Source: Crassostrea angulata
Lineage: Eukaryota
Direction of reading: 5' to 3'
Assembly (NCBI RefSeq): GCF_025612915.1
Contig: NC_069116.1
Location: forward strand, 24,579,051-24,643,050
DNA: 64,000 nt
The translations under genes were made by a program, and so were the position numbers. The notes beneath the pieces are model-generated. The model saw nothing but the letters and a program-made list of their open reading frames with translations. It ran no database searches and was not told the origin of the DNA. Below are positions 14,260-45,735 of the stretch, piece by piece (position 1 is the stretch's first letter; each line of letters begins with the position of its first letter).

Positions 14260-17200
14260 ACAAACTTTCAAACTTTATTATTTATATCCGTAGTTTGTGA
14301 ATGACAACATAAACAGTGAAAACTATAATACAGTTTGCGTCATAGTACTAGGTATGGATTTCCATTGAGGAGTTTTCACGTGTATTTGATTTCTTGATCC
14401 TAAACTATTTTGACAATTTGTCAAATTACACAAAGGGTGTGTCAAAAGAACAAGACTCCTAGTATCAAGCGAACACTTAGATAGGAGATAGCCATCTTGA
14501 CGAATTGATCTTGTACTTTAGACGTTTAAAATTTTCTAAATGTTTTCACCGAGAGATTTTTTTCTTCATGCTTTTATGCAACAATTAAAGTCGTATTAGC
14601 TTGGTAACCACCCATAATCAAGTTTACATTTGGGAAGTCATCATTTCAGAGAATGGCTGTGACACTTTCCATTATCAAACGCTGATCAGATATTCAATTT
14701 AACGGCTTTGTATACAAATCAAAGAACTTCGACGTTTAGAGAAAAAAAAAATGATCTGAGATTTGATAATCTTGGAACCTGCAATCAATGCAGTCTGCTT
14801 AAACATATTTAGAACAAACCTTTATTTCTTTTTTACCCACGCAACGAGATAAAGAAGAAACTTCACCGAATGATCACATTTGTCAATCTTATACGTTAAG
14901 TATGAATGACGACAAATTTTAAGTCCATCAAATTATGTAAAGACTTTGGATAGTAATTGCAGGGAGGGACCGGGGTCCATTTTGGTACCAGTGTATATAA
15001 CACTGGGTAGGTGGTGGCCCTTTTTTGACTGATGTCATGTACGTGATATGGCAACGACAGTTTTTTTTTCCTTTTTAGCAGCGGGCACATCAAAAAACAG
15101 TAGAGACCACCCAATTTACTGCAAACACTGACATTTTCGACGCTTTGATGAAATACTTGCTGCACTCTATGTGTGTAAATTTTGACAATATTTACTGTTA
15201 AAATTGCTTGAGTAATTTTTTTTTTTAAATTAGACTTTAAAACTATATTTTCTGAATAAAAAAGACATGGAGAAATAAAATTAAGCTTTGTCGTATGTTG
15301 GTATTCTTAAAGGAAAATTACAAATATATATGATATTTACATATATATGAAAAAAAAATTAAGAAAACGAGAAGAAAATTTAAGATACTTTTTAAAAAGT
15401 TAAGAAAATGTATACAATATGTGCAATGAAGCACAATAATACTTGATTTTGCTTTCGTTGATCTAGTATTATTACTTCTCTTTAAATCTCTTTTTCTTCT
15501 GTATGATAGTAAAAAAAAGGTAAAACTACAGAGAACATCAAGGCATTACATCATAAGCCTATGTAGCATATTGTCTGAATAATTTTCAAATACATGCATT
15601 GTTATACACTTCCTGTAGATATATTTTCAATCTGTACATTGACAGTATTTCATTTTCATTGCGCGAATATAAGATATATATTGATACAGGAATCGACAAC
15701 GAACAACCCCACGCGATAGTAGTTAAGTTTAGTGAAAATATTATAACTTATTAATAAAAAATCAATAATAACCGTTAAACTTTTCATATTCCCCTTCTTT
15801 CTTATTTAATTCTTTCATTTATTCTTTCTCTCTCTCTCATTTGAGCTTTAACTAAACGATGCTATGAGAAAACCTCAGTAGGATAACAAACAAAACTCGA
15901 TAAAATTAGAGATGTCCTGTTTCTCTATATTCAGCCACGCGCCTTCGTGAAATCAATGTAAAATTTGCCGTAGTACAATGCTAACCAAAATAGTCGACAA
16001 TTAAGTAATTCACCCCAATTAAATTATCATGGTGTAAATGATCCGAAAACGTTTGCTCATATCTTATTATGAATATCCGAGGGAAGAAAAATGGTTTCTT
16101 TCCGAACATAATTCTGTAGATTTCTAAAAATACAAAATCGCTTATTCTGTCCATCTCTGATGGCCAGTAACACAAAGAAGCTTTATTATATTCCATGAGA
16201 GACTACAGTTATCTTGACTTTTCCACCTTCAAATTCTGAAGAACTGTTTCCGGTTTTTAGACACTGGGCGTCGGAGTAGGAACAATAAATCTCTCTTGTC
16301 ATTTTCAAACATTTTAATATCTTTCAGAAATATTTTTTTAGAAAGGATATTCGACTACTTTGGACACAAGTGTCTTAAATTGCACAAAGAACGTATCAAG
16401 TATTGACACTGATACCTTGTGACGTCCAAATGGTGCTCATTTGATGTCTTTGACGTCATATTTATATTGACTATACATTTGAAAGAACTAAGCCCCGCTG
16501 ACAACATTTGTTTTAAAGTCAATTGTTTCTTTTTTGGAAAATGATCGATGCTATTTCAAACTACAATACTATTTCCATTGAGTATTTTCTCATATATTCC
16601 GATTGTTGTTTGGAACAGGGCACAATATTGTTTATAAGAAGTTGTCAACCGTTTTGCTGGATTTACTCGGTTAAAACAGGATGAAAGCACTTGACCAAAT
16701 TGGGCGATGTGTCAGAGGTCAGATACGGATTATCACTTCCATCTATAACGCACTTTAACATGTACATTTCAAACGTATTAAATTGTTTACATATTTACAA
16801 ACAGTATTTCTTCTTGGTTTAATCGGGTTTTGCGGTCTCAATCATTGTAATGAAAACTATACACAATCCAATGATTATGGTCATGATTTCTGAATAAGAG
16901 AAAAAATCTTCATATTAAGGTACACCAAGACTCTTCTGCTGAATTTAAAATTCCGATACATAACAAAATATGTTCGTAACATTACAGTATCCGACGTTAA
17001 TCTCTGAATGAACCCGTGATATTTGTTATTCTATTTGTCAACGAATATCTACAGGACTTCAAAAAGGTAGTTCTTGGTAATATTTCGATTAGCAACAAGT
17101 CATAAAATATCCGCAACTTTTACTTTCACTTTCAATATTGCGAGCGTTGCAAGGTTTAATTTGAGCATATTTTATAAAGTATGAGAAACAAGTTTTATCA

Positions 17201-21567: not shown

Positions 21568-21604
<37 letters not shown>

Positions 21605-22080
21605 GAACAATAGGTATGATAAAGTCAGCTTAATGGAGCCATAATACAAACAATCTGGACAATGTACATTGTTATACTTTCATGTTAAATACTGAAATCT
21701 GATTGGTTAAGACGCAGTTAATAATATTTCCTATTACCCTCAGCGTTAGCAACGCACTTAGCAACGGGTAACATTAAAAAATGTTACATGCACGAAAATT
21801 ATGCGCGTACGGTTCGCTGTAGAATTCACGTTATTCCTATATAAAAACAGTAAAATTTTCTTATAAATTAAGACATTCAGTATTACAAAATAAATGGTGC
21901 CGGTTTGGGAGGGTAACAGTTGAAATTGACACCCCAGGCACTATTTATATAATAATACATGTAGATCCTGTATAAATAAAATCCATTTTCCCCCTTGGAA
22001 CTCGGATAGCCCTGATTGCTGCCAATATTTACAAGAGCAGACTTTAATCACCGCTCCTGCACATATATAGGGACTCAAAG

Positions 22081-22340
22081 TTACGCAGGCAGGGATGACC
22101 GCACACCTACACAACTCACAGGTACCAACGTTAACGCAAGCAGGGATGACCGCACACTTGCGCTAGAAAGGCCAGAACACCAGAAGTGATGACCATACAC
22201 TAGTGCTCCGCCGCAACCACCACCAAGACAAGCAAGTATGACCATACAATTGTATTAATGCGATACAGGGCAGGAAGGACCGCACACTCTGTATCGTAGG
22301 TTAGAAAAACACGAAAATTAGATTTAGCAGGGATGTCCAC
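22081..22340. repeat. Minisatellite of ~50-55 bp units built on CAGGGATGACCGCACAC.
   Basis: The motif recurs at about 22087, 22140, 22186, 22237, 22272 and 22327. Confidence 0.65.
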
Positions 22341-22837
22341 ACCCTCAACCTCTCCGTACCTGTTCAAGTTTAACCCCAAACAGTCGCTCGTCACAATGCA
22401 ATATACACTGTCCCTATATATGTGCCGGCTTAAAATAATTCATAGTGTCTAAAAATTGGAAATCAAAAATAAACAAACCAATCCGGCCTAACCCAAAACT
22501 ACTTATGCAGAACAACTTATATACATTGAATATTTATTATTGTATAAAATTAATTATCACAATAATTGGTTAACAGTGGATGCATTAATTAAAATAATCA
22601 AGAATCAATAAATCAAGGGCAATAACTCAAAACAGTAATACAAAAAGATTCTAATGTAAAAATAGCTGCCTGCTTCAATTTTAGAGTCATATCACATGTT
22701 GAGTATTGCAGTTCTCAAAAAGATCCTTTACAATTGTTTATATATGGGATATTTAGCTACATCAAACTCTGAACCTTCTTGTGAGGCCGAAGAATTGTCC
22801 TGGAGCCAAAGTCTTAACAATTATAAAGAATCATCTT

Positions 22838-23991
22838 CCTGATTAGTTTCTGAGAAGAAGATTTTTAAAGATTTACTCTATATATATTCCTATGTAAAAC
22901 TTTAACACCCCCCCCCCCCCCCCATGTGGCCTCACCCTACCCCCAAGGGTCATGATTTTCACAACTTTGAATCTACACTACCTGAGGATACTTCCCACAA
23001 GTTTCAGCGTTCCTGGCTGATTAGTTTCTGAGAAGAAGATTTTTAAATATTTACTCTATATATTCCTATGTAAAACTTCGACCCCCCCACACCCCCATTG
23101 TGCCCCACCCTACCCCCAGGGATCATGATTTTCACAACTTTGAATCTACACTACCTGAGGATGCTTCCACACAAGTTTCAGCTTTCCTGGCTGATTAATT
23201 TCTGAGAAGAAGATTTTTAAAGATTTACTATATATATTCCTATGTAAAATTTTAACACCCTCCCCCCCAATGTGGCCTCACCCTACCCCCAGGGATCATG
23301 ATTTTCACAACTATGAATCTACACTACCTGAGGATGCCTCCACACAAGTTTCAGCTTTCCTGGCTGATTAGTTTCTGAGAAGAAGATTTTTAAAGGTTTA
23401 CTCTATATATTCCTTTGTAAAACTTCGACCCCCCATTGTGGCCCCACCCTACCCCCAGGGGTCATGATTTTCACAACTTTGAATCTACACTACCTGAGGA
23501 TGCCTTCACACAAATTTCAGCTTTGCTAGCTGATTAGTTTCTGAGAAGAAGATTTTTAAAGATTTACTCTATATATTCCTATGGTAAACGTCGACCCCCC
23601 ATTGTGGCCCCACCCTACCCCCGGGGGTCATGATTTTCACAACTTTGAATCTACACTACCTGAGGATGCTTCCACACAAGTTTCAGCTTTCCTGGCTGTT
23701 TAGTTTCTGAGAAGAAGATTTTTAAAGATTTACTCTATATATTCCTATGTAAAACTTCGACCCCCCATTGTGGCCCCACCCTACCCCCGGGGGTCATGAA
23801 TTTCACAACTTTGAATCTACACTACCTGAGGATGCTTCCACACAAGTTTCAGCTTTCCTGGCTTTCTGGTTCTTGAGAAGAAGATTTTTGAAAATTTCTC
23901 GAAATTTTTCATTAATTTCTAATTATCTCCCCTTGAAAACGGGTGTGGCCCTTAATTTTCACAACTTTGAATCCCCTTTGCCTAAGGATGA

Positions 23992-24023
<32 letters not shown>

Positions 24024-24045
24024 AGTTCTTGAGAAGATGTTGAAA
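22838..24045. repeat. Satellite-like tandem array, about 6.5 copies of a 165-180 bp unit.
   Basis: The unit ctgattagtttctgagaagaagatttttaaagatttactctatatattcctatgtaaaact…ccccattgtggccccaccctacccccaggg…catgattttcacaactttgaatctacactacctgaggatgcttccacacaagtttcagctttcctgg recurs at about 22841, 23023, 23190, 23353, 23529, 23700 and 23867. The spacing is close to one nucleosome. ORF 23768..24025 is an artefact of it. Confidence 0.85.
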
Positions 24046-24060
24046 ATGTGAAAAGTTTAC

Positions 24061-24104
24061 GGACAGACGGACGGACAGACGGACGGACATACGGACGACA
24101 GACA
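24061..24104. repeat. (GGACAGAC/GGACGGAC)n microsatellite.
   Basis: The sequence is ggacagacggacggacagacggacggacatacggacgacagac. A related stretch caaacggacggactgacggacgcag lies at 46782-46806. Confidence 0.8.
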
Positions 24105-24119
24105 AAATGTGATCAGAAT

Positions 24120-24156
<37 letters not shown>

Positions 24157-24235
24157 CTCTTAGCATTTCATATGCAATTCGCGGGTGAAATATTTGCTGA
24201 CCAATCCTCCCCAATAAACTGATAATTGGTTCAAC

Positions 24236-31081: not shown

Positions 31082-31522
31082 ATGGAAAACTTATACAGTA
31101 TTTTGGGCTGCGAGGAATCGGCAACATGTGAAGAAATAAAAAAATGTTATCAGAAGCTTGCATTAAAGACTCACCCAGACAAAGTTGCTTCTCAAAGTAG
31201 GGAAAAGTTGTCGGATGCTAATGACGAATTTGCTAAGATTAGTTTTGCTTGGAAAATTTTAGGCGATGAAGACTTAAGAAACCAGTACGACATAAAGTGG
31301 AAACAAAGATGCATATCACAAGACTGGCCAATTCAAGATGACATTGAAATCGAAGAGTTCGAGATATGTGATACACCCGACTGTGATGATCATGTTTACA
31401 CTTACCCATGTAGATGTGGCGGATTGTATGCACTCTCGGAGACTGATGTTCAAATTAAATTCGACATCGTGTGTTGTGACACATGTTCTCTAAGTGTTCG
31501 GATTTTGTATAATACCAATTAA
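31082..31522 (+). CDS. DNAJC24: DPH4 / DNAJC24-type protein: an N-terminal J domain fused to a CSL-type (DPH-type) zinc finger. It is 146 aa and has no intron.
   Basis: The ORF is intact at 31082..31522. It contains YSILGCEE…KKCYQKLALKTHPDK (HPD motif of the J domain) and AWKILGDEDLRNQYD. It also contains CRCGGLY…CDTCSL (CSL zinc finger). This is collinear with human DNAJC24 (WYSILG…MYHPDK…AWKILGNEETKREYD…CRCGGKY…CDTCSL…LLHYN). A Kozak-like gctaATGG precedes it and an AATAAA follows at 31544-31549. Confidence 0.9.
   Translation: MENLYSILGCEESATCEEIKKCYQKLALKTHPDKVASQSREKLSDANDEFAKISFAWKILGDEDLRNQYDIKWKQRCISQDWPIQDDIEIEEFEICDTPDCDDHVYTYPCRCGGLYALSETDVQIKFDIVCCDTCSLSVRILYNTN

Positions 31523-31617: not shown

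Positions 31618-31686
<69 letters not shown>
31598..31686. repeat. Poly-C tract followed by a (CT)31 microsatellite, immediately 3' of DPH4.
   Basis: Direct reading. ORFs 31554..31763(-) and 31570..31899(+), the RERERE/LSLSLS reads, are artefacts. Confidence 0.95.
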
Positions 31687-31904: not shown

Positions 31905-32640
31905 ATAATTAATAATTTAATTCTGATTGTAACGCCTCATTTGATTGGCTAAACAAATTCATATATATCGTATAACATAACTTGCCTACGTCACAATAAG
32001 ACGTGCGAGCGAAACGTATTAATTCGCTTGACGTTACGTTTACATTTTGTACAAATTAACATATTTTAACTAACTAAGGGGCCTTATTATCTAATTTAAA
32101 TAGTAGAAAAATAAATGATAAGGAATAAATTTAATTTCTACCTACGTTATATGAGTATAACATAACTTGGAACAGTTTACGCTTTTTTATAAACCGCTTC
32201 GCGGTTTATAAAGTGTAAACTGCCCCAAGTTATGTTATATCGTATAACATAGGTAGAAATTTAATTCATTCCTTAAATAATTTAATTCTGGTTGTAACGC
32301 GCATTCTGATTGGCTAAAAATTATTTTATATCGTATAAAGAATGTTGCCTACGTCATAGTAAGACTTACGTCAAAAACGTATTAATACGCCTGACCTTAC
32401 GTTTGAATTTTGTACAATTTAACGTCATTTTAAAGGTCAAATGACCGTTTTTATTAAGGGATGAATTCAATATTTATTTGTTTTATACGATATAAAATGG
32501 TTTGGGACAGTTTACGCTTTATAAACTCTCTTTACGCTTTTTTATAAACCACTTTGCAGTTTATAAAGCGTAAACTGTCCCAAACCATTTTATATCGTAT
32601 AAAACAGATAAATATTGAATTCATTCCTTAAATTATAGTA
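31905..32640. repeat. Tandemly duplicated module of about 370 bp. Each copy is a ~155 bp direct-repeat unit (31905-32060 and 32275-32430) followed by a ~150-180 bp near-perfect palindrome (32122-32272 and 32458-32640).
   Basis: The A units share aataatttaattctgRttgtaacgc…tgattggctaaa…tatatcgtataa…gcctacgtca…acgtattaat.cgc.tgac.ttacgtttRaattttgtacaa. Each palindrome's arms are reverse complements around a central tttacgcttttttataaacc core. Confidence 0.75.
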
Positions 32641-33243
32641 ATAAATAATCTTAAATATACATATAAAAGAATCAATTAGTAAGAAGTTGTGTCCCCTCTT
32701 TTTTGAGTCAATGTAAAAAATTGAAGTAAAAATAAGAAAACGAACAAAGACATTGAATTCATAGGCGCATTACCCCACCCGCACGGAACGGAATAGGGTT
32801 TTTATAAATTAAGATGGTTGCCCTTTTTTTGGCAAAGATTACACCCCCTCTCCAACCTTTAAATACGATGCTACGTGCCTGTAGAAGATGAGATAAATGA
32901 TTATCATAAAAGCTATTCAGTTTTAGTTGCAAAACCTGTTTGTATAAAACACTTTTTTGTGCTAAGGGTAATGGCGTTCTATGCTAAAAGTTTTGCGATG
33001 TGACTGTTGGCACTGATGATACTCTTTATACAATTTTTGATTTATTTCAATTTTAATTATACATGACATTTTAAGTTGATGATAACAATTAGCAGATCGG
33101 AATGCTGTAAACGATTATGACGTCACAATGGCTTGCGTCACGTCCATTGTTGGATATAGATCATTGCCAACATAGCGGCTTTGACAACCGTTCTCAGTAT
33201 TCAGAGAAGTTCAAGGCGAAGAAACCCAAAAGACTTATAGAAG

Positions 33244-33267
33244 ATGGCATCAACTTCGAATAAGAGG
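33244..33267 (+). CDS. Unknown K/R-rich protein gene, exon 1 (MASTSNKR).
   Basis: A Kozak agaagATGG precedes it and the donor is AGG|gtaata. A perfect CRE palindrome TGACGTCA lies at 33127-33134 and a CCAAT-like box lies about 100 bp upstream. The frame joins exon 2 in phase 0. Confidence 0.45.
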
Positions 33268-33786
33268 GTAATAATTCAAGTATAATACTTATTTTTTATT
33301 TTACTGATTGAAACAGTACTACATACATGCATTATGATTTATCAAACACATTTTTAAATTTTAGTCCATATACTATGCATTATTGTTAGTATGACATATA
33401 CCCTCTTTGCTCTTGCATAACGTCCGCCAGACTTTCCACATGTCATATAAAAAAAAATAATGGGATATAGAAGTATTTTTAACTAAAGAGATCATTTTGA
33501 TTTGTAAGGTACATTGATTTTGTACATTTATTTGCTCTCTGTCTTTATATATCCGTGGAATTGCTATAGATCGCCTATGAACAACATCCTTCATTTAGAT
33601 TTAAATAAGCGATTAAAAACAGAAGGATATACATTTAAAGAATTATACATTTGTCTTTTTAATTTGGTAGTCATTTTTGTCGAGTTTCAGGTTGATAGCT
33701 TTCTTACAATTCAGTAGGTCTTCACATAAAGCGACTTTTTTCTTATTACTGCATAAGTCTTATCTAAATATTGTATCAACTTTCAG

Positions 33787-33885
33787 AGCATTGACGATTT
33801 AGAGTTAGAGGAGTGCTGCAGGGCCGTGAAGAGAATGGCGATTCGCTGGCCTCCTGCAACACTTGAGTCAGTGGATGGAGACAAG
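33787..33885 (+). CDS. Unknown gene exon 2 (SIDDLELEECCRAVKRMAIRWPPATLESVDGDK).
   Basis: Acceptor tttcag|AGC, donor AAG|gtaaca. It is 99 nt, phase 0-0. Confidence 0.55.
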
Positions 33886-34076
33886 GTAACATTTTTTTTT
33901 AAAATCGCAACGCTTTGTAAATGTTGGTTTGAGTTTTATATGATCTATAGAACAGCCCTGTCTTTTTTCACGAATATTTTAGAAACATGTTACATGTATA
34001 AATACGTAACTTCCGCTAATTTTCCGCTAATCAGTTAATAGATGAATAATTCTTCTATATATTGTTTTTAATATAG

Positions 34077-34124
34077 ATCACGACAACTGCTGCTAAAAGC
34101 AAGAAAAAACCTTGGCGACTTCAG
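34077..34124 (+). CDS. Unknown gene exon 3 (ITTTAAKSKKKPWRLQ).
   Basis: Acceptor atatag|ATC, donor CAG|gtacat. It is 48 nt, phase 0-0. Confidence 0.5.
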
Positions 34125-34398
34125 GTACATATTTTCAGGTGCCAAATTATGTTGCATTATTATATCTTTGTTGTAAATGGCCTATTTTTGGAATATTGTC
34201 TTGTCCGAAATGCATATAAATTCATATACTCGGTAGTCTTGAATCGTTGGAATATTTCAAAAATTTAAATAACCTATTCAAATCTCGGGTTATCTGGTTT
34301 GGATTTGTATTTGCTAATGCATGTATTTGCTTACAGGCGTAAAATCTTTTACTGTCAATTGGCATGGAATCCCGAATTAATAGTTAGGTTCTTTGTAG

Positions 34399-34461
34399 AT
34401 GCAGCCAAAAGATAGAGTCCCACAGAAGAAGACAACTCAGCAGAGTTGCTCCCCTTTAAAG
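34399..34461 (+). CDS. Unknown gene exon 4 (MQPKDRVPQKKTTQQSCSPLK).
   Basis: Acceptor ctttgtag|ATG, donor AAG|gttggt. It is 63 nt, phase 0-0. Confidence 0.5.
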
Positions 34462-34554
34462 GTTGGTTTTGTTTTTTTTTAATTTAATTTTACAAAGCTG
34501 TAAGAACTTCATTTGGTTGAATTAAAATCTAATTTTATTAAAATCATTTTCCAG

Positions 34555-34602
34555 GCTTTGGAAGAGCAGATTTCGGTTATGCTGAAAGCAATAAGAAACT
34601 CC
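34555..34602 (+). CDS. Unknown gene exon 5 (ALEEQISVMLKAIRNS).
   Basis: Acceptor ttttccag|GCT, donor TCC|gtaagt. It is 48 nt, phase 0-0. Confidence 0.5.
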
Positions 34603-34874
34603 GTAAGTAATGGAATATGTTATTCTAGTATTCTTTGTGATAAAATAAAATAAATCGGAAAGGGCACTTGTGAATTTAATTTTACTTTTCAATTCCGTAT
34701 GGTTATACAAATGTTTGGTGGGGTGGAACTTCATTTAACTTCAACCTTTAATATGTAAATCTAAGAAAAATGTCTGCTATGAATTTTTTTTTTTTTTTGG
34801 GGGGGGGGTTGCCCTCTCCTCTGCTCCTTTTTCCCGATGCAACGTTCCTGAAAGTTCCAATAATTTGTTGATAG

Positions 34875-35036
34875 TGTCCTAACATCGAAGAAACCAAGAC
34901 AAAGGCGGTAGAAGTAGACCTTACACCTAACCCCACAAAGAGAGGAAAACCCCGCATGAAAGGAGCAAGGAAAAAGCCATATCAAAAATCTGGCGGAGAG
35001 GACAACAAACGCAAAAATCCCGAAAAAGACGTACAT
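34875..35036 (+). CDS. Unknown gene exon 6 (CPNIEETKTKAVEVDLTPNPTKRGKPRMKGARKKPYQKSGGEDNKRKNPEKDVH). An alternative in-phase donor lies 6 nt upstream at 35030.
   Basis: Acceptor ttgatag|TGT, donor CAT|gtaagt, the consensus. GAC|gtacat is also in phase. It is 162 nt, phase 0-0, and strongly basic. Confidence 0.5.
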
Positions 35037-35168
35037 GTAAGTGGGCCTGGTTTCCAATGTTATTACCAGTAAACTGAATACTATGATTTACATCGCCATT
35101 GCTTGAAGTTAAAATTCCATGTCGTTTTCAATCTTTCAGTTAAACTTTATGCATAACTATTTTGACAG

Positions 35169-35261
35169 ATCCCCGTAGCCCCTTTACCTGTTTTGGTGGC
35201 ACCTCCCAGCTACAACTTGTTACGGAGTGAGAGTACATGTACCACCACCAAAACCAAAAAG
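35169..35261 (+). CDS. Unknown gene exon 7 (IPVAPLPVLVAPPSYNLLRSESTCTTTKTKK).
   Basis: Acceptor ttttgacag|ATC, donor AAG|gtatgc. It is 93 nt, phase 0-0. Confidence 0.5.
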
Positions 35262-35373
35262 GTATGCCGTCATTCACTGCGTCTAATAGTTCATTAGAGT
35301 TTATTCTTGTTGAATGTAGCTTTTGATTCATATACATGTGTATTGTGTTATTGCCTTTTATTTCTTTCGCCAG

Positions 35374-35454
35374 ATAAAGTGTACAAAGACTATTTCCTCT
35401 GTGACAGCAGACGTGGCGTGTTCAAGCAGCAAGAACACCGATAAAGCTGGAAAT
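35374..35454 (+). CDS. Unknown gene exon 8 (IKCTKTISSVTADVACSSSKNTDKAGN).
   Basis: Acceptor tttcgccag|ATA, donor AAT|gtacgc. It is 81 nt, phase 0-0. Confidence 0.45.
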
Positions 35455-35581
35455 GTACGCAACTACTTCTAGATCTCTTTTATTGTGTACAAAAGATCAT
35501 ATTGATGAAATCACTTTCAAATACCACATGTAATAATCACACCTAATGTTTTTTTTTTCCATCTATTTTTCTCATTTTCAG

Positions 35582-35704
35582 GCCACTCACAAACGTAAAC
35601 ATCACAGACAATCCGCAAAAAGCTCTATCAAGAAGAGAAGAATGATCCCAGAAGACTCATCTGTGGAAGAGCTCATCAGCAAGTTTGCCGAATTGGCACT
35701 GTGA
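35582..35704 (+). CDS. Unknown gene terminal exon (ATHKRKHHRQSAKSSIKKRRMIPEDSSVEELISKFAELAL*).
   Basis: Acceptor cattttcag|GCC. The stop TGA is at 35702-35704. It contains a bipartite-NLS-like KRKHHRQSAKSSIKKRR and a C-terminal amphipathic motif EELISKFAELAL. Confidence 0.55.
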   Translation, partial: ATHKRKHHRQSAKSSIKKRRMIPEDSSVEELISKFAELAL

Positions 35705-37597
35705 ATGGACAATTTACTTCCAACTTGCTCTGTTTAATTATTATTGATTTCAATATTATCTGTTTGCCTTAATCACCGATTTAAATATATTAATTAATTT
35801 TTTTAAAAATCAAATTAGATATGGATCGTTTTATAAATTATTTACAAACTTAACAATTGTCAGCTTGTATTTTCAAACAAGACGCCCATGGGCCACATCG
35901 CTCACTTGAACAATAGTTCTTGTATCATTCCGTTTTGAAAATTTTAATTAGATATGAAACTTGTTAAAATATTGTAGAACTCCTAGATTTGACAATACAT
36001 TAAATAAAGGAATCCTACTTTTTTGACATCATAAGCTACGGTTCGTTATTTTGTTTTTGGTTCGATTCAATTAAACATATATCAGCGTTAATATTTCTCA
36101 TTGTAAATAGAAAAACTTATCTTTAACTTGTACATATAGATTCTTTTACTTAAGAATAACAAAAAAAAAAATGTTATGTATTCTTTTCAAATTAATTATT
36201 TAGAGGATGAAAAACTTGCAGGAAACATGGAAAAACTTGTTGGCAAAACTGTACACAAAGAATACTTGATGACATTATTGGTTTACATGCTAATACAGTA
36301 ACTAAAAACGATTTCGAAAATAATTTGAAAAAGTATTTCAAATATAAATTTATCAGAGACATTAAGAAAAAAGAAATGGAAAATTGCCATTCTATAGGTA
36401 ATTATTAATTACACAAAATCTAAAAACAAGCTTGAAATTAAAACATGCTTAAATTTTTCCATTTCCAAGAAGCTTCTTTTTTTTTTTACTCAATTAGGAA
36501 TAAGTGCCCAAAAAATTACAGACAGAGGTTGTCAGATATCGTAACCTTATTATTCCAAGGGATAAAAGATATTGTATCAATTTTTATACTGTAGATGAAA
36601 ATTAACATCATTTACAACTACGAAGTGAATATTGTTCAGTTTTCACTTTTTAAAAACGCATGCATTTCTTATAAAATTCTTAAACAACAAGAATGAACAA
36701 AAGAAAATGTATGTACTGACTATATCTGTAACTATTGTCTGTATCATCAGGTCTCATTGACCCTCTGATATAATTTTTATTATATATAATTTTACTGTAA
36801 TATATCATTTCTAAAACTTATTAAAAAACAGTTCTTTTTGTTGAAATGCTTTTTACTACATTTCTCGACTAAGTCCCTGTTTAACTTGTGTCAAGCGTTA
36901 ACAATATTCAATAAATTATACACGTTAAGAAGTTAGGTACATATTAACACCATTCGATGCCACGAGGAACTTTGGGTGATTTACTAACAAATAACTTTTA
37001 CGTAATCACATGAAATTCAATTAAGAAAGCTTTTTGATGCCCCCTTTACTCAATTACTGTTCGGATAACGGATTAGTGCTGCTTTTGTTTAGTCCACGCT
37101 ATACCCTCCCCCCTTTCGGGTATGAGGTCCCCGACAGGGAAATTAGTGTGTCTTCTTTTTAACTTTAATATTGTATACCTATCGGTATACCTTGCCTTGA
37201 CCATGAGGAATTTTTGTATCAAAGCCCAGCGCGTCACTTTTTCTGGACGCTTCCTCAATAACAGACGTATTCTTAATATCTCAACTTTTGGTCATATTTT
37301 ACAGGTCATCGTTAATTATAAATTTCACCCCCCAATTCCAATATGACGAGTTGGTGAATGTCTCCTCAAAAATCCCAATGAAGAGCAGACCAATAAACTA
37401 CATGTACAGTACCAATAACAACGTTATTTTTACAAGATAAACGATAGGATAGGATTCACGCACGATATGATAGGATTAACGCACGATAGGATAGGATTAA
37501 CGCACGGTAGAACAGCATACACGCACGATAGGAAAGGATAATTAAACGATGTTCATGATAAACGTATAATCGCTTTTCACGATCTTCACAAATAAAC

Positions 37598-41149: not shown

Positions 41150-41793
41150 TTGGCAGAAATTCACAACGTGACAGATGCTGCACTTTTAACAATTGGATGC
41201 AGTTTAGAAGGCCAAGCTGAAACCTGGCTACAGACATTGTCACCAAAACAGAGAAACAACTTAACGGAGTTTAAAGAGTGCCTGAAAAACAGATTCGCCC
41301 CTCAGGAAACAAACTTTACCCTCTTGTCCATAAGACAAGAAGCAGGGGAAACCACTGATGTTTACTTGTATAGGGCAGAAAAACCGCCCTTGGCAATGAT
41401 TTTCCAAAAATATGCAAAGTCCCATTCGCCACCCAATGACTGGAAAACCAGGAGAATGCAAAAGTGATATCAAAAGAGCCTAAAAAATTTCAGGAACTAT
41501 GCCATGCAGTGTCCCTAGCTAAAGCATTACTAAAATGCAACACCAGAGAAGATATGAACAATTTAACTCTGGTAGCATTAGCTGCTCAGCTGAAGGACCC
41601 CTTGAAAGCTGAAATGAGTGCTTTAACACAGAGTAATTTGCGAATCAAAGAACGGTCAGCCAGAACCATGGAACACAACCCCACCACCCGGATACAGTAT
41701 GCCAAACAAACTTTGCCCTTCCACCTTCCTCTTACTAACAGTAGCCCCCAGTGTAACCCCAGGTCCAGCCCTCAGCACAGCAGTGGCCCTTAG
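41150..41793 (+). pseudogene. Retrotransposon gag, spanning two ORFs joined by a frameshift.
   Basis: ORFs 41150..41467 and 41464..41793. A degenerate zinc-knuckle-like CEGCGKLYLPC lies at about 41820-41860. Confidence 0.6.
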
Positions 41794-42276
41794 CAACCAA
41801 CAATGGACAAATCCCCCGAGTGAGACAGTACCATTGAGCAAACCGAGTCTGCGAGGGATGTGGTAAGCTCTACTTGCCCTGCTTTTAATGTTAATGCTTT
41901 TATAAAAGATGTTTCAGATGGCGTCATTTTGCTTCAGTGTGCATGTGGTGGTTGGATAACATTGAAACTGCGGTGAACCTCCTACCAGCCTACAAGGACA
42001 CATTCCACAAATGCCTAACACACAATTCCACAACCACTCCTTAATGTCACACCACAATTCATAATGCTAGGTAAAACGCCTATCCTTTCCAAGAATTGTT
42101 ACCAAACTTACAGCACCCTCACTACAAACTCAGTGTATGCATAGCACGCTTAGATCGACTAACACTTGCCGTCAGATCATCAGTCCCTCTAACCAAGCCC
42201 CCCGCTCCTCATTAAAACCTACCCATCGCTTAAACCCAAGCTCAGTATTACAGCCAAATCGCGCAGTTCGGTTAAT

Positions 42277-42591
42277 TTGATTATGCCTATCATGAGAAAC
42301 ACTATTAGTGTTGATATCTATGATACTCCCATGCATGCATTGGTTGATACAAGTGCATCTATCTTATGTATAACATCCTCTCTTGTGACTAGGCTAGGTA
42401 TAGACAAGAGTTCAATTCAGTCAACTAATGCAACTGATGCGGTCGCTGTTGAAGGTAAAGTCCATCGCAGTCTTGGTGTTCTATCCTTGCCAATTTCTTT
42501 TGATGGTTTTGTTTTTACACATGATTTTCAGGTTTTTGACAAAATCCATCAACCTCTTATTTTGAAACTTAGATCTTTTAAGAGCAAATGA
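42277..42591 (+). pseudogene. Retrotransposon aspartic protease.
   Basis: ALVDTSASILCITSSLVTRLG is a D(T/S)G(A/S)-type active-site variant of retropepsins. Confidence 0.6.
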
Positions 42592-43202
42592 TGCTGTTCT
42601 TAGCACTGCACAGAACACACATACTCTCTCTTTTTCCCTCTCTTAAGGACCCTATTTCTAACCATGTCCTTGCAATTGACATTAATTCAGGTCTTGCTAG
42701 AGTTTGTCAAACAGCCACTGTCAATCCTGGGTGTGTCATGGCAATTGAGGTATTTATCTCAAGTTCATTAAGAGGTGCTCATGTTCTGTTGGAACTCTCA
42801 CAACAACTTTCTAAGCTAGGCCATGCAGGAGCCAAATGCTTAGATGATACCCTAAACAACGAGATTCATTATATGCAAGTCATCAATCCTACAACTGACC
42901 CAATTACTTTGTCAGCAATTACATGCATTACATCTCCCACAGTTGTAAATCCTAATACCGTACTATCTCTAGACAACCCAACACCATCCAATACACACTC
43001 TGACCTCCAACCACCTTATGGTTGTCCAATAGATGTTGATCTTTCTGACTCTGATCTTAATCTCACAAAAACAGGTCCTTCTAGCTTTTCTCAACAAACA
43101 GAGATCTGTTTTCAAACAGAATTAGGCAACTGTGCTGTTCAATTCCATCGCATAGAAACTGGTGATGCGTTTCCTGTCCGACAGCAATTGTATCGACAGT
43201 CC

Positions 43203-44460
43203 TCATAAGTAAATGCTGTGATGAATATACAACTAGAGGAGATGTTAGAAGCCAATATCAGAGTCAACATCTATGAGGCAAAGTCCCGTTGTCATGGTTA
43301 AAAAGAAAAATGGCCAACTACGTTTTGCAGTAGATTATAGAAAGCTAAAGGTATCACACCGGTAATCGACCAATCAAAATGAACTTAGAACTTAGTCAAT
43401 TGTAGTTCCATATATACTTCAGAATTAATTTTTTCCTTGACTGCATTTTAACATTTTCCTTTACTCAGTTTTAAATTTTTTTGAACCACTAAGAAGGATA
43501 TTTCATGTATTTTGTTAGGTGATGGTCTTCTTTCACAGGGACTACTTCTTTCAGGGCACATGCAGCAGCTTCCTGGAGAGTGTGCAGTCTGTTTACATAT
43601 AAATGGAAAACACGTGGTTTTGAGGGTAGACCTGTTTAGACCTGTGATGAGATAGGTAACAAATTACATTACCTCCGAATATTTTGTCATGAAAAATACA
43701 AATTGATTTTTAAGAATGTTTTCTCCTCTATAGTGCTACATAGTGAAAACAATTACCGGTGTGATACTTAAACTCTGTCACAAAACAATACACATTTCCT
43801 TACCTCGTTTGGAAGATGTTTTTGACACATTTGGGATTTCTAAAGCACAGCTATTTTCTACTCTACACTTAGCTTCTGTTTTTTGGCAAATACCTATAGA
43901 TCCTAAAATTGCCCACAAATCAGCATTGTTACCCCTACTGGAGTGTATCAGTGGAAACGTTTGCCCTTTTGCCTTGTCAATGCCCCGGCTAGCTTTCAGG
44001 CACTTATGACCGAAGTACTTACGGGTCTTAACTGGAAAACCTGTCTTGTCTATATAGATGATATTCTTTTCTTCTCTATCTCCTTTGAACAACACATTCA
44101 GCATTTGGAGAAAATCTTTTCTCGCCTTAGTTCAGCAGGTCTTACATTGAAACCTACAAAATGCTCTTTTGCTCAACGTCAAGTGTAGTATCTTGGTCAT
44201 GTTACTACCAATGATGAAGTCAAAGTGGGTGTTTCTAATACAGATGCTGTGAAGTCATTCCCAACACCAAAATGTACCAAAGATGTCAGATCTTTTCCTG
44301 GAACTACTATCGAAAATTTAAAGGACCATTAACAGCATTACTGAGAAAAGACAACAAATTTAAATGGTGCGATGAATGTCAAACAGCCTTAAATTTTCAA
44401 AGGATGTCCCTTTATGTTATGCAGTTACCTTGCCTTTACAGATCAACGTTAATTATATAT
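43203..44460 (+). pseudogene. Retrotransposon reverse transcriptase (Ty3/gypsy type). It is frameshifted and interrupted by a MITE.
   Basis: Motifs seen: SPVVMVKKKNGQLRFAVDYRKLK, LPRLEDVFDTFG, FWQIPIDPKIAHKSA, LPFCLVNAPASFQALMTEVL, the YxDD box CLVYIDDILFFS, and the RT/RNase H linker LLRKDNKFKWCDECQTALNFQ. Confidence 0.75.
43350..43767. mobile_element. A roughly 418 bp MITE-like insertion inside the RT ORF. It has 16-bp perfect TIRs GTATCACACCGGTAAT and probably a TTAA target-site duplication.
   Basis: The left end is ggtatcacaccggtaat and the right end is attaccggtgtgatac. Removing it restores the RT frame as AGA AAG CTT AAA CTC TGT CAC (RKLKLCH). The right flank is TTAA and the left flank is TAAA, one substitution away. 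Confidence 0.6.
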
Positions 44461-45735
44461 ATTTCAACACCCCCCCCCCCCCCCAATTCCAATATGACAC
44501 CTGTATGACTTGCGCCACATGTGTTTTTTATTTTTTTCGTAAAATTGAATTAAATAGAAATAGCAGACATCGAGCTGATAGATCCAGTTGTATATTTAAA
44601 TTGTGATGTACACTAGGTCGACTAGTTGTTGGTTTATTTCCTTTTCCATTAACTGTGTCCCCATGCACTTCTGAGCGTCTAAACTGACGACCATTTTTGT
44701 ATATACACGTTAGATAAATTTTGAACCGAAACGAAATCTTAAAATCCGGATTGGCGCATCGAATCAATAGGAATGAATCGCGGCGCAACTAACAGCACTA
44801 ATTTTCAAGCGGCGCATGGAGACTTGTTACAATGCAATATTTGCAAATACACTCTTCTCGCAACTAGAAAATATTTAATAGAACTGCACATAACAAGACG
44901 ACACGAAAGCAAACCATCAACACATTAACGTGGAATGTTTGGAAAACGGAAACTCCTTCCGAAATTCTGGGCCTTATCAGCCCGAGTTTTTTTTTATATT
45001 ATAGAACAAGGAGAATCGACCAAGGAGGTGTCTAGACGGCTCCATTACCGCCAGACGTCTACATGTACAGTTTCACATTCATCCCCTGTTGGAAAGACTC
45101 CTGGAGGCCCATCTACGCCAATCATCCCACTGAGATCTTCATCCCTCTGTGTGTCACTCGGAATTCATGTGGAGGTCGATTTATATGGAGTTAACCCTAC
45201 TACCTCTGAAAGGAGAGTGTTCGTTATGAGCACTTTACCTCTCATTTCCTTGCCATCTTTCAGTCAGCTTAGGGTCTTGACTTTTCCGGCTTTTTGTAAT
45301 CTCCCTGCTGCAACTTTTGTCTCATATCTGGGATTTTCAGTGACAGCAGTAATGCGTGTTCCTTCAGGATTACCGAACTTTCTTAAGCTATTTCTGAGAC
45401 GGTCTCATCTAATGTGAATGTTACATGTACCTCCTCTATATCTTCTGGAACATTCTCCCTCACTGAGTGAGAAAGTTCACACTGATCATCTTGGCCCTTG
45501 GCCAGTTCTCTATGCCAGAATTCGATTTCTGCGATTTGGATCATCAAAGTGATACTTTCCTATCTCTTAAGCCAGCTATGGAGCCTGTTCTACCTGTCCC
45601 AACTAACCAGGCCAAAAACTTTCAACCAGTCTCATGTTCCTGTGTCTATGACAACCTCTGAATCAACTGCTGCTACGAACAACACAGTCAACACTCCATA
45701 GAACATCTTTCATAAGGTGAATCCTTCCCTCCATC

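Follow-up and report, generated by a model that had tools for sequence, protein, structure and literature searches.

Nine small exons between positions 33100 and 35710 of a 64,000-nt stretch of the Crassostrea angulata (Magallana angulata) genome (RefSeq assembly GCF_025612915.1, contig NC_069116.1, positions 24,579,051 to 24,643,050 of the forward strand; "the window" below) raise a double question: whether such a locus, which encodes a lysine- and arginine-rich chain and in which every intron falls in phase 0, is a gene in its own right, and what its uniform architecture means. An earlier note made from the letters of the window had called the gene unannotatable. The analysis identifies it as LOC128190329, a stand-alone protein-coding gene whose model is already public in RefSeq, though without a name; it is a lineage-restricted gene of an ordinary kind, coding for a disordered protein.

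Gene model and oyster family

The nine-exon model was rebuilt from the window sequence. All introns run GT...AG and every exon length is divisible by 3 (24, 99, 48, 63, 48, 162, 93, 81, and 123 nt), giving a 246-aa product when exon 6 is closed at the donor at 35036. RefSeq protein XP_052718311.1 (P0001, "uncharacterized protein," 244 aa) is 99% identical to this product, and its spliced mapping on the window is exact, with eight of the nine exons as first drawn and exon 6 ending at 35030. The GT-AG boundaries and the eight phase 0 introns of the earlier note are reproduced by RefSeq except for 6 nt of exon 6, whose start and frame were right and whose RefSeq donor lies 6 nt before the one proposed. 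The start codon is flanked by A at −3 and by G at +4, no other ATG occurs in the 5′ untranslated region (UTR), and an in-frame TAG at 33238-33240, two codons upstream, fixes this ATG as the start. The transcript extends over ~33178 to 35853, corresponding to an mRNA of ~0.95 kb and a product of 244 or 246 aa.

LOC128190329 belongs to a small family that sequence searches detect only in true oysters (Ostreidae: Magallana, Saccostrea). Its members are (i) the window gene and its Magallana gigas ortholog LOC109620564 (P0022, locus L006; 242 aa), in syntenic flanks of 96 to 98% nucleotide identity; (ii) a recent paralog, LOC105337529 (P0002, P0021, P0023; locus L002), on a different chromosome, whose alignment at ~80% identity covers only the gene body and patches to ~1.2 kb upstream (seen against L006); (iii) an old paralog, LOC117684688 in M. 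gigas and LOC128165007 in C. angulata (P0006, locus L001), at 39% identity; and (iv) LOC133171742 of Saccostrea echinata (P0009, P0014; locus L003), at ~23% identity. P0002 was considered as the ortholog of the window gene and rejected, its flanks being unalignable; the true ortholog is P0022 on L006. Similarity of the Magallana members to the window protein ranges from E = 3e-149 to 3e-17, and the Saccostrea member is matched over its full length (E = 3.4e-8) by a profile built without it. Exons of paralog iii are also found on short genomic contigs from further oyster species. As a side observation, LOC117684688 is a nested gene: in M. gigas, a fibrinogen-C-domain gene on the same strand encloses it completely (L001 34-21778).

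The earlier note had been unable to assign the product to any family, and the database searches bear this out. When 5.8 billion proteins were searched by word index, first with the protein alone and also with two profiles, all matches came from oysters, and an exhaustive hidden Markov model (HMM) search of 1.84 billion cluster representatives brought up oyster proteins and short pieces of oyster genomic sequence and nothing else. Neither the window protein nor any family member matches Pfam at E ≤ 10; the best PDB hit of the family profile is an insignificant match to topoisomerase II (E = 0.17); nothing was confirmed among the JGI metagenome contigs scanned with the family motifs; and tblastn finds no second copy of the gene within the 64-kb window. 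Exact look-ups of P0001, P0003, P0004, and P0009 in a contig index returned no record. The C-terminal segment, for which conservation in other invertebrates had been suggested as a check, is kept only within Ostreidae. No papers were retrieved from the literature with the LOC, XP, or UniProt identifiers or with the accessions of the runs. The family is unnamed, has neither a Pfam model nor a literature of its own, and is previously undescribed; what is new here is its delimitation as an Ostreidae-restricted set with three helices, a cassette exon that removes the second of them, and a cAMP response element (CRE) invariant across genera. The other members agree with the window gene in the three helices and the basic motifs, in the order of these, in the exon layout, and in the CRE promoter block, and no feature sets the window gene apart, making it a full member.

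One source names P0022 "muscle M-line assembly protein unc-89" (unc-89/obscurin). Judged by what defines that family (Ig/Fn3 repeats and DH-PH and kinase domains in a giant protein), the name is spurious for a 242-aa protein without a Pfam domain and is probably a low-complexity artifact of automatic naming.

Transcript evidence for the family comes from two Logan contigs from two runs, L004 (955 nt) and L005 (918 nt), which encode without interruption the full 247-aa protein of paralog ii. On L002 they align as nine blocks that coincide exactly with the nine exons, with eight equivalent junctions; on the window they stop at the homologous boundaries, 35030 included, with ends at ~33178 (L004 base 1) and ~35853. 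Together with the RefSeq model, these contigs, which hold just the nine equivalent exons, support the stand-alone gene. The very small exons and low-complexity coding sequence might otherwise invite the reading that the exons are pieces of another gene, perhaps a longer one, or of a noncoding host transcript (for example, a small nucleolar RNA [snoRNA] host) in which the open reading frame (ORF) is incidental. That reading is largely refuted and extremely improbable: the paralog contigs span the equivalents of 33178-35853 with these nine exons only, the neighbors (the DnaJ/CSL ORF at 31082-31522 and a thioredoxin-domain gene) are separate, the ORF stays open across copies with saturated synonymous divergence (dS), and the introns are conserved no better than synonymous sites, their ~80% identity to paralog ii being near the expectation from a dS of ~0.2. 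Rfam (E ≤ 1) finds nothing in 32500-36500 and yields two subthreshold microRNA (miRNA)-like matches, both outside the gene. A snoRNA/miRNA host gene was rejected on the grounds that the introns contain no Rfam RNA and are not better conserved than the exons.

Exon symmetry, cassette exon 5, and splice site variation

Spliced mapping of P0001, P0022, P0002, P0006, and P0014 on their respective loci places every intron of all five in phase 0. Loci of members i, ii, and iii have nine coding exons, all multiples of three; Saccostrea has eight, exons 4 and 5 being fused (63 + 48 = 111 nt). With the phase 0 frequency of human introns, given as 46.3% in Schad et al. 2013 (PMC3632108), the chance of eight phase 0 introns out of eight is ~0.002 for a single gene, which is uncommon, yet a genome would hold a number of such genes. 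Because the M. gigas ortholog, both paralogs, and the Saccostrea homolog are all phase 0, the uniformity is one inherited family trait, not five independent events or an accident. The value of the result is mostly that of a clean negative: intron phases that look odd in isolation turn out to be an inherited trait that fits the known association among symmetric exons, disorder, and alternative splicing.

Uniform phase 0 had also been taken to mean that any internal exon can be skipped without breaking the frame. Skipping is borne out for one exon, exon 5, in RefSeq isoforms of two paralogs: P0020 (isoform X2 of paralog ii) joins exon 4 straight to exon 6 on L002, and P0007 (isoform X2 of paralog iii) is missing the same 16 residues. 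Exon 5 is a cassette exon in these isoforms. It codes for the best-conserved peptide of the oyster family, ALEEQISVMLKAIRNS, and each conserved motif of the protein likewise occupies an exon of its own.

The co-occurrence of symmetric exons, disorder, and alternative splicing is known, as set out by Schad et al. 2013 (PMC3632108). The genes treated there resemble the window gene in their symmetric internal exons, in carrying one motif per exon, and in their disordered products, and they resemble the oyster family in the alternative splicing of a symmetric, motif-bearing exon. The worked example is a human gene of 1,1 exons, discussed in connection with exon shuffling, whereas all exons of the window gene are 0,0, the gene is lineage restricted, and it has no sign of shuffled domains or internal repeats.

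The discrepancy at exon 6 has a simple origin. The 3′ boundary reads GAC/GTACAT/GTAAGT in the window (slashes mark the donor junctions) versus GAC/GTAAGT in the syntenic M. gigas ortholog, and the 6-bp GTACAT insertion in C. angulata has created tandem in-frame donors. By U1 complementarity, the 35036 donor chosen in the earlier note is by far the stronger (−6.6 versus −0.9 kcal/mol for the RefSeq donor at 35030), and the intron 8 donor of the same gene is as weak as that at 35030. Phase 0 is kept with either. The insertion offers a natural test case for tandem donors, C. angulata versus M. gigas. A second in-frame splice site microvariation in the family, beside this one, is the tandem acceptor tag/cag of the Saccostrea homolog (L003 12821/12824), which gives RefSeq isoforms X1 and X2 differing by one Gln.

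Two further observations concern the introns. Intron 1, 519 nt in the window, carries in the M. gigas ortholog a 4.2-kb insertion (L006 10115-14322) that is absent from the window and from paralog ii and is probably a transposable element. Intron 5 contains a T15 run abutting a G10 run (34785-34809) that is not found as such in the paralog alignments.

Protein architecture, promoter, and candidate functions

The protein is very basic (isoelectric point [pI], ~9.9; 52 K+R in 244 aa), as the earlier note had it. AlphaFold2, run on a five-sequence alignment, predicts helices at residues 10 to 27 (H1), 76 to 94 (H2), and 229 to 243 (H3), with the rest unstructured at low confidence, in a globally poor model (predicted local distance difference test [pLDDT] score, 55). 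Each of the three falls on a conserved block of the family alignment, and they are predicted to be short, amphipathic, conserved helices in an otherwise disordered basic chain; H3 corresponds to the short amphipathic C-terminal motif already remarked upon. KKKPWR and R[KR]KPYQKS are further motifs conserved in Magallana, and exon 3 has zero nucleotide differences from that of paralog ii. The nuclear localization signal (NLS)-like clusters noted previously are also present as patterns: a bipartite one is found in 5/5 members, 10 to 25 residues before the C-terminal helix, and in the Magallana members a basic cluster closes with R-x-x-P-Y, a proline-tyrosine (PY)-NLS-type pattern. The last ten residues read L-xxx-F-xx-L-x-L, and all five members end in L-xxx-F-xx-L-x-[LI]-stop, a class 1a nuclear export signal (NES) pattern found exactly at the C terminus in just 0.12% of shuffles.

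Comparison of substitution rates shows a synonymous excess against both paralogs. The ratio of nonsynonymous to synonymous rates (dN/dS) comes to 0.40 (p = 6e-4) when paralog ii is the reference and to 0.17 (p = 9e-8) with paralog iii; by region it is 0.1 to 0.2 in the conserved blocks and 0.5 to 0.7 in the linkers. As judged from these alignments, purifying selection acts on the three helices and the two basic-aromatic motifs, and the linkers between them evolve fast. A basic protein that binds nucleic acid or chromatin (for instance nucleolar, ribosome-biogenesis, or germline chromatin), with KKKPW and RKKPY touching RNA or DNA and the helices secondary, would share several of these properties: the pI, the K+R content, and the disorder, a conserved aromatic residue inside each basic cluster of the Magallana copies, and fast-evolving linkers, which are typical of such proteins. 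We consider it a rather unlikely description of the family, because it is the helices and not the basic clusters that are best conserved, RKKPY is not kept in Saccostrea, and Pfam finds no known nucleic-acid-binding domain. The "nuclear or chromatin-associated regulator" of the earlier note is for its part reasonable but overstated; the bipartite and PY-type NLS patterns, a pI of 9.9, and predicted disorder would at most suggest such a role.

The promoter provides a second line of conservation. The full CRE/ATF palindrome of the earlier note is real and invariant in five promoters, although it lies at 33118-33125, 9 nt from the 33127-33134 originally given, ~53 to 60 bp upstream of the inferred transcript start. 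It is held in a block, ATT[AG]TGACGTCAC, that is invariant in 5/5 promoters ~120 to 150 nt before the ATG and is kept in Saccostrea although the surrounding promoter sequence no longer aligns. A second conserved block follows, with an ACGT core ~15 to 25 bp downstream that is also invariant in 5/5 promoters. The CCAAT-like box proposed alongside the palindrome was not recovered, the window promoter containing no exact CCAAT/ATTGG; ATTGG occurs in the promoters of paralog ii, paralog iii, and Saccostrea, and both the window gene and its M. gigas ortholog have lost it. Visual inspection of the aligned family promoters revealed no conserved TATA element.

Taken as a modular family with the properties described, LOC128190329 and its relatives are best explained as nuclear disordered adaptors with partner-binding helices, an interpretation that we hold to be probable. 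The bipartite classical NLS and the PY-NLS-type clusters would carry the protein into the nucleus, where it might act as a flexible adaptor with H1, H2, and H3 as partner-binding modules. Skipping of exon 5 would produce a variant minus one module (H2), while the C-terminal helix H3 could bind a partner or else serve as an export signal of the CRM1 type, with possible shuttling. Transcription would probably be driven by a factor of the CREB/ATF family. For any work on oyster-specific nuclear regulators, the family offers a small, tractable case of a disordered protein that is modular and restricted to one lineage.

Several points weigh against the adaptor interpretation. Localization, partner binding, export, and CRE dependence are all read from short patterns that are common in basic amphipathic sequence: the NES pattern occurs somewhere in 24% of shuffles, the PY-type motif is not in Saccostrea, and the palindrome TGACGTCA is over-represented in the window (7 sites versus 0.67 expected; 0/100 shuffles reached seven), so that its presence alone is not specific. 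The seven sites start at 16451, 19670, 28693, 33118, 50067, 51725, and 54314, and since their flanking contexts all differ, they are not copies of one repeat. The AlphaFold model has a predicted template modeling (pTM) score of only 0.15 and draws on an alignment of five sequences. No transcript of the window gene was found, the contigs being for paralog ii only, and the evidence for the window junctions consists of the RefSeq model and of homology with the paralog ii transcripts. Finally, dN/dS against the M. gigas ortholog is 0.64 (6 synonymous and 14 nonsynonymous changes), indistinguishable from neutrality (p = 0.25).

The last two points, together with two in-frame indels of 6 bp between the orthologs (one at the exon 6 donor, one in exon 7) and the loss of the ATTGG box upstream of the window copy, are what would be expected if a young lineage-specific gene had been duplicated and this copy, being redundant, were decaying with little or no function of its own. 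Such decay seems distinctly unlikely, given an intact ORF with canonical splice sites in both C. angulata and M. gigas, just 2 nonsynonymous changes in the conserved blocks, an intact CRE promoter, and the modeling of the gene as coding by RefSeq.

A more specific proposal arises from a likeness to PKI. The end of H1 (R20-xx-K23-R24-x-A26-I27) might be a pseudosubstrate for a basophilic kinase such as PKA-C, with H3 as a class 1a CRM1 export signal and the CRE promoter closing a cAMP feedback loop; the protein would then be a PKI-like shuttling regulator. The P-6, P-3, P-2, P0, and P+1 arrangement is that of PKI R15-xx-R18-R19-N-A21-I22 (PKI sequence checked against PDB 3wyg_D and 1apm_I), A26 is invariant in the family, the C-terminal L-xxx-F-xx-L-x-[LI] of all five members fits PKI L-ALK-L-AG-L-D-I, and the CRE is conserved. 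Both are small and disordered, and the window protein contains a basic-x-Ala-hydrophobic segment reminiscent of the PKI pseudosubstrate as well as a class 1a NES-type pattern. The oyster protein is, however, three times longer than PKI, strongly basic, and equipped with strong NLS-type clusters not found in PKI, and no sequence homology is detected: the Pfam PKI model (PF02827) is unmatched by any member at E ≤ 10, and hhalign against PKI-alpha gives a probability of 0.1%. The pseudosubstrate-like segment reads R-AV-K-R-M-A-I in the window gene and paralog ii, R-SI-K-R-L-A-V in paralog iii, and S-AF-K-K-M-A-L in Saccostrea, so that P-3 is K and not R, and the residues are only partly conserved in Saccostrea, which has S..KKMAL without the P-6 Arg. 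At the position equivalent to PKI F10, the oyster protein has no aromatic residue. The H1 segment is moreover predicted to be helical and not extended, and such short motifs arise easily in basic amphipathic sequence. We therefore regard a PKI-like regulator as very improbable. The same small chance applies to its fuller form, by analogy, in which the family would be an oyster-specific functional analogue (not homologue) of PKI, induced through the CRE, entering by its NLS, binding the kinase through H1, and exporting it through the C-terminal helix, with exon 5 skipping tuning the complex.

Other short motifs were considered (D-box/KEN, PIP-box, RVxF, Ku-binding, Sin3-SID, HP1 PxVxL, and AKAP helix) and set aside for want of a convincing fit; the sole partial fit among them is a loose AKAP-like doublet pattern in H3.

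Feature coordinates and surroundings in the window

Table 1. Elements of LOC128190329 and its promoter, in window coordinates (slashes mark splice donor junctions)
Feature	Position	Strand	Description
Full CRE/ATF palindrome TGACGTCA	33118-33125	.	Proximal promoter, 119-126 nt before ATG
Second conserved promoter block GCGTCACGTCC	33135-33145	+	CRE half-site CGTCA plus ACGT core
Inferred 5′ UTR	33178-33243	+	33178 is the equivalent of the 5′ end of the longest paralog contig
Coding exon 1	33244-33267	+	24 nt, MASTSNKR
Exon 2	33787-33885	+	99 nt; conserved helix H1 IDDLELEECCRAVKRMAI at 33790-33843
Exon 3	34077-34124	+	48 nt; conserved basic-aromatic motif KKKPWR at 34101-34118
Exon 4	34399-34461	+	63 nt; 3′ end codes for CSPLK (S-P-x-K pattern), start of helix H2
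Exon 5	34555-34602	+	48 nt; codes exactly for ALEEQISVMLKAIRNS, body of helix H2
Exon 6	34875-35036	+	156 nt with the 35030 donor (RefSeq), 162 nt with the 35036 donor (earlier note); basic cluster KRGKPRMKGARKKPY at 34938-34982, PY-NLS-type pattern
Tandem donors GTACAT/GTAAGT	35031-35042	+	GTACAT (6 bp) is inserted by comparison with the M. gigas ortholog and paralog ii
Exon 7	35169-35261	+	93 nt; linker rich in proline and hydrophobic residues, poorly conserved
Exon 8	35374-35454	+	81 nt; Ser/Thr/Lys-rich linker, poorly conserved; weak donor AAT/GTACGC
Exon 9	35582-35704	+	123 nt including stop; bipartite-NLS pattern KRKHHRQSAKSSIKKRR at 35591-35641; helix H3 DSSVEELISKFAELAL at 35654-35701
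TATAAA	35832-35837	+	Likely variant polyadenylation signal; paralog contigs stop at the equivalent of ~35853

Upstream of LOC128190329, at a distance of 1.7 kb and on the same strand, lies an intronless 146-aa ORF (31082-31522, +) with a DnaJ domain and a CSL zinc finger (DPH4/DNAJC24-like). The gene calls listed for L006, the syntenic locus in M. gigas, do not include this ORF; in the window, a perfect (CT)31 microsatellite comes after it at 31624-31686. Farther upstream, a 166-bp tandem repeat of 5.8 copies with 90% matches (22918-23897) sits inside a 2.65-kb segment (21574-24228) that has no counterpart in the syntenic region of M. gigas and has a GC content of 0.40 with strong negative GC skew. 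The unit length is reminiscent of oyster satellite Cg170 (166 bp), which is associated with Helitron-type elements. On the other side of the gene, degraded long terminal repeat (LTR) retrotransposon-like ORFs occupy 41150-45417, with a Retrotrans_gag match at 41150-41467 and an aspartyl protease at 42277-42591, and the sequence around them has 88 to 96% nucleotide identity to L006, in places more than once.

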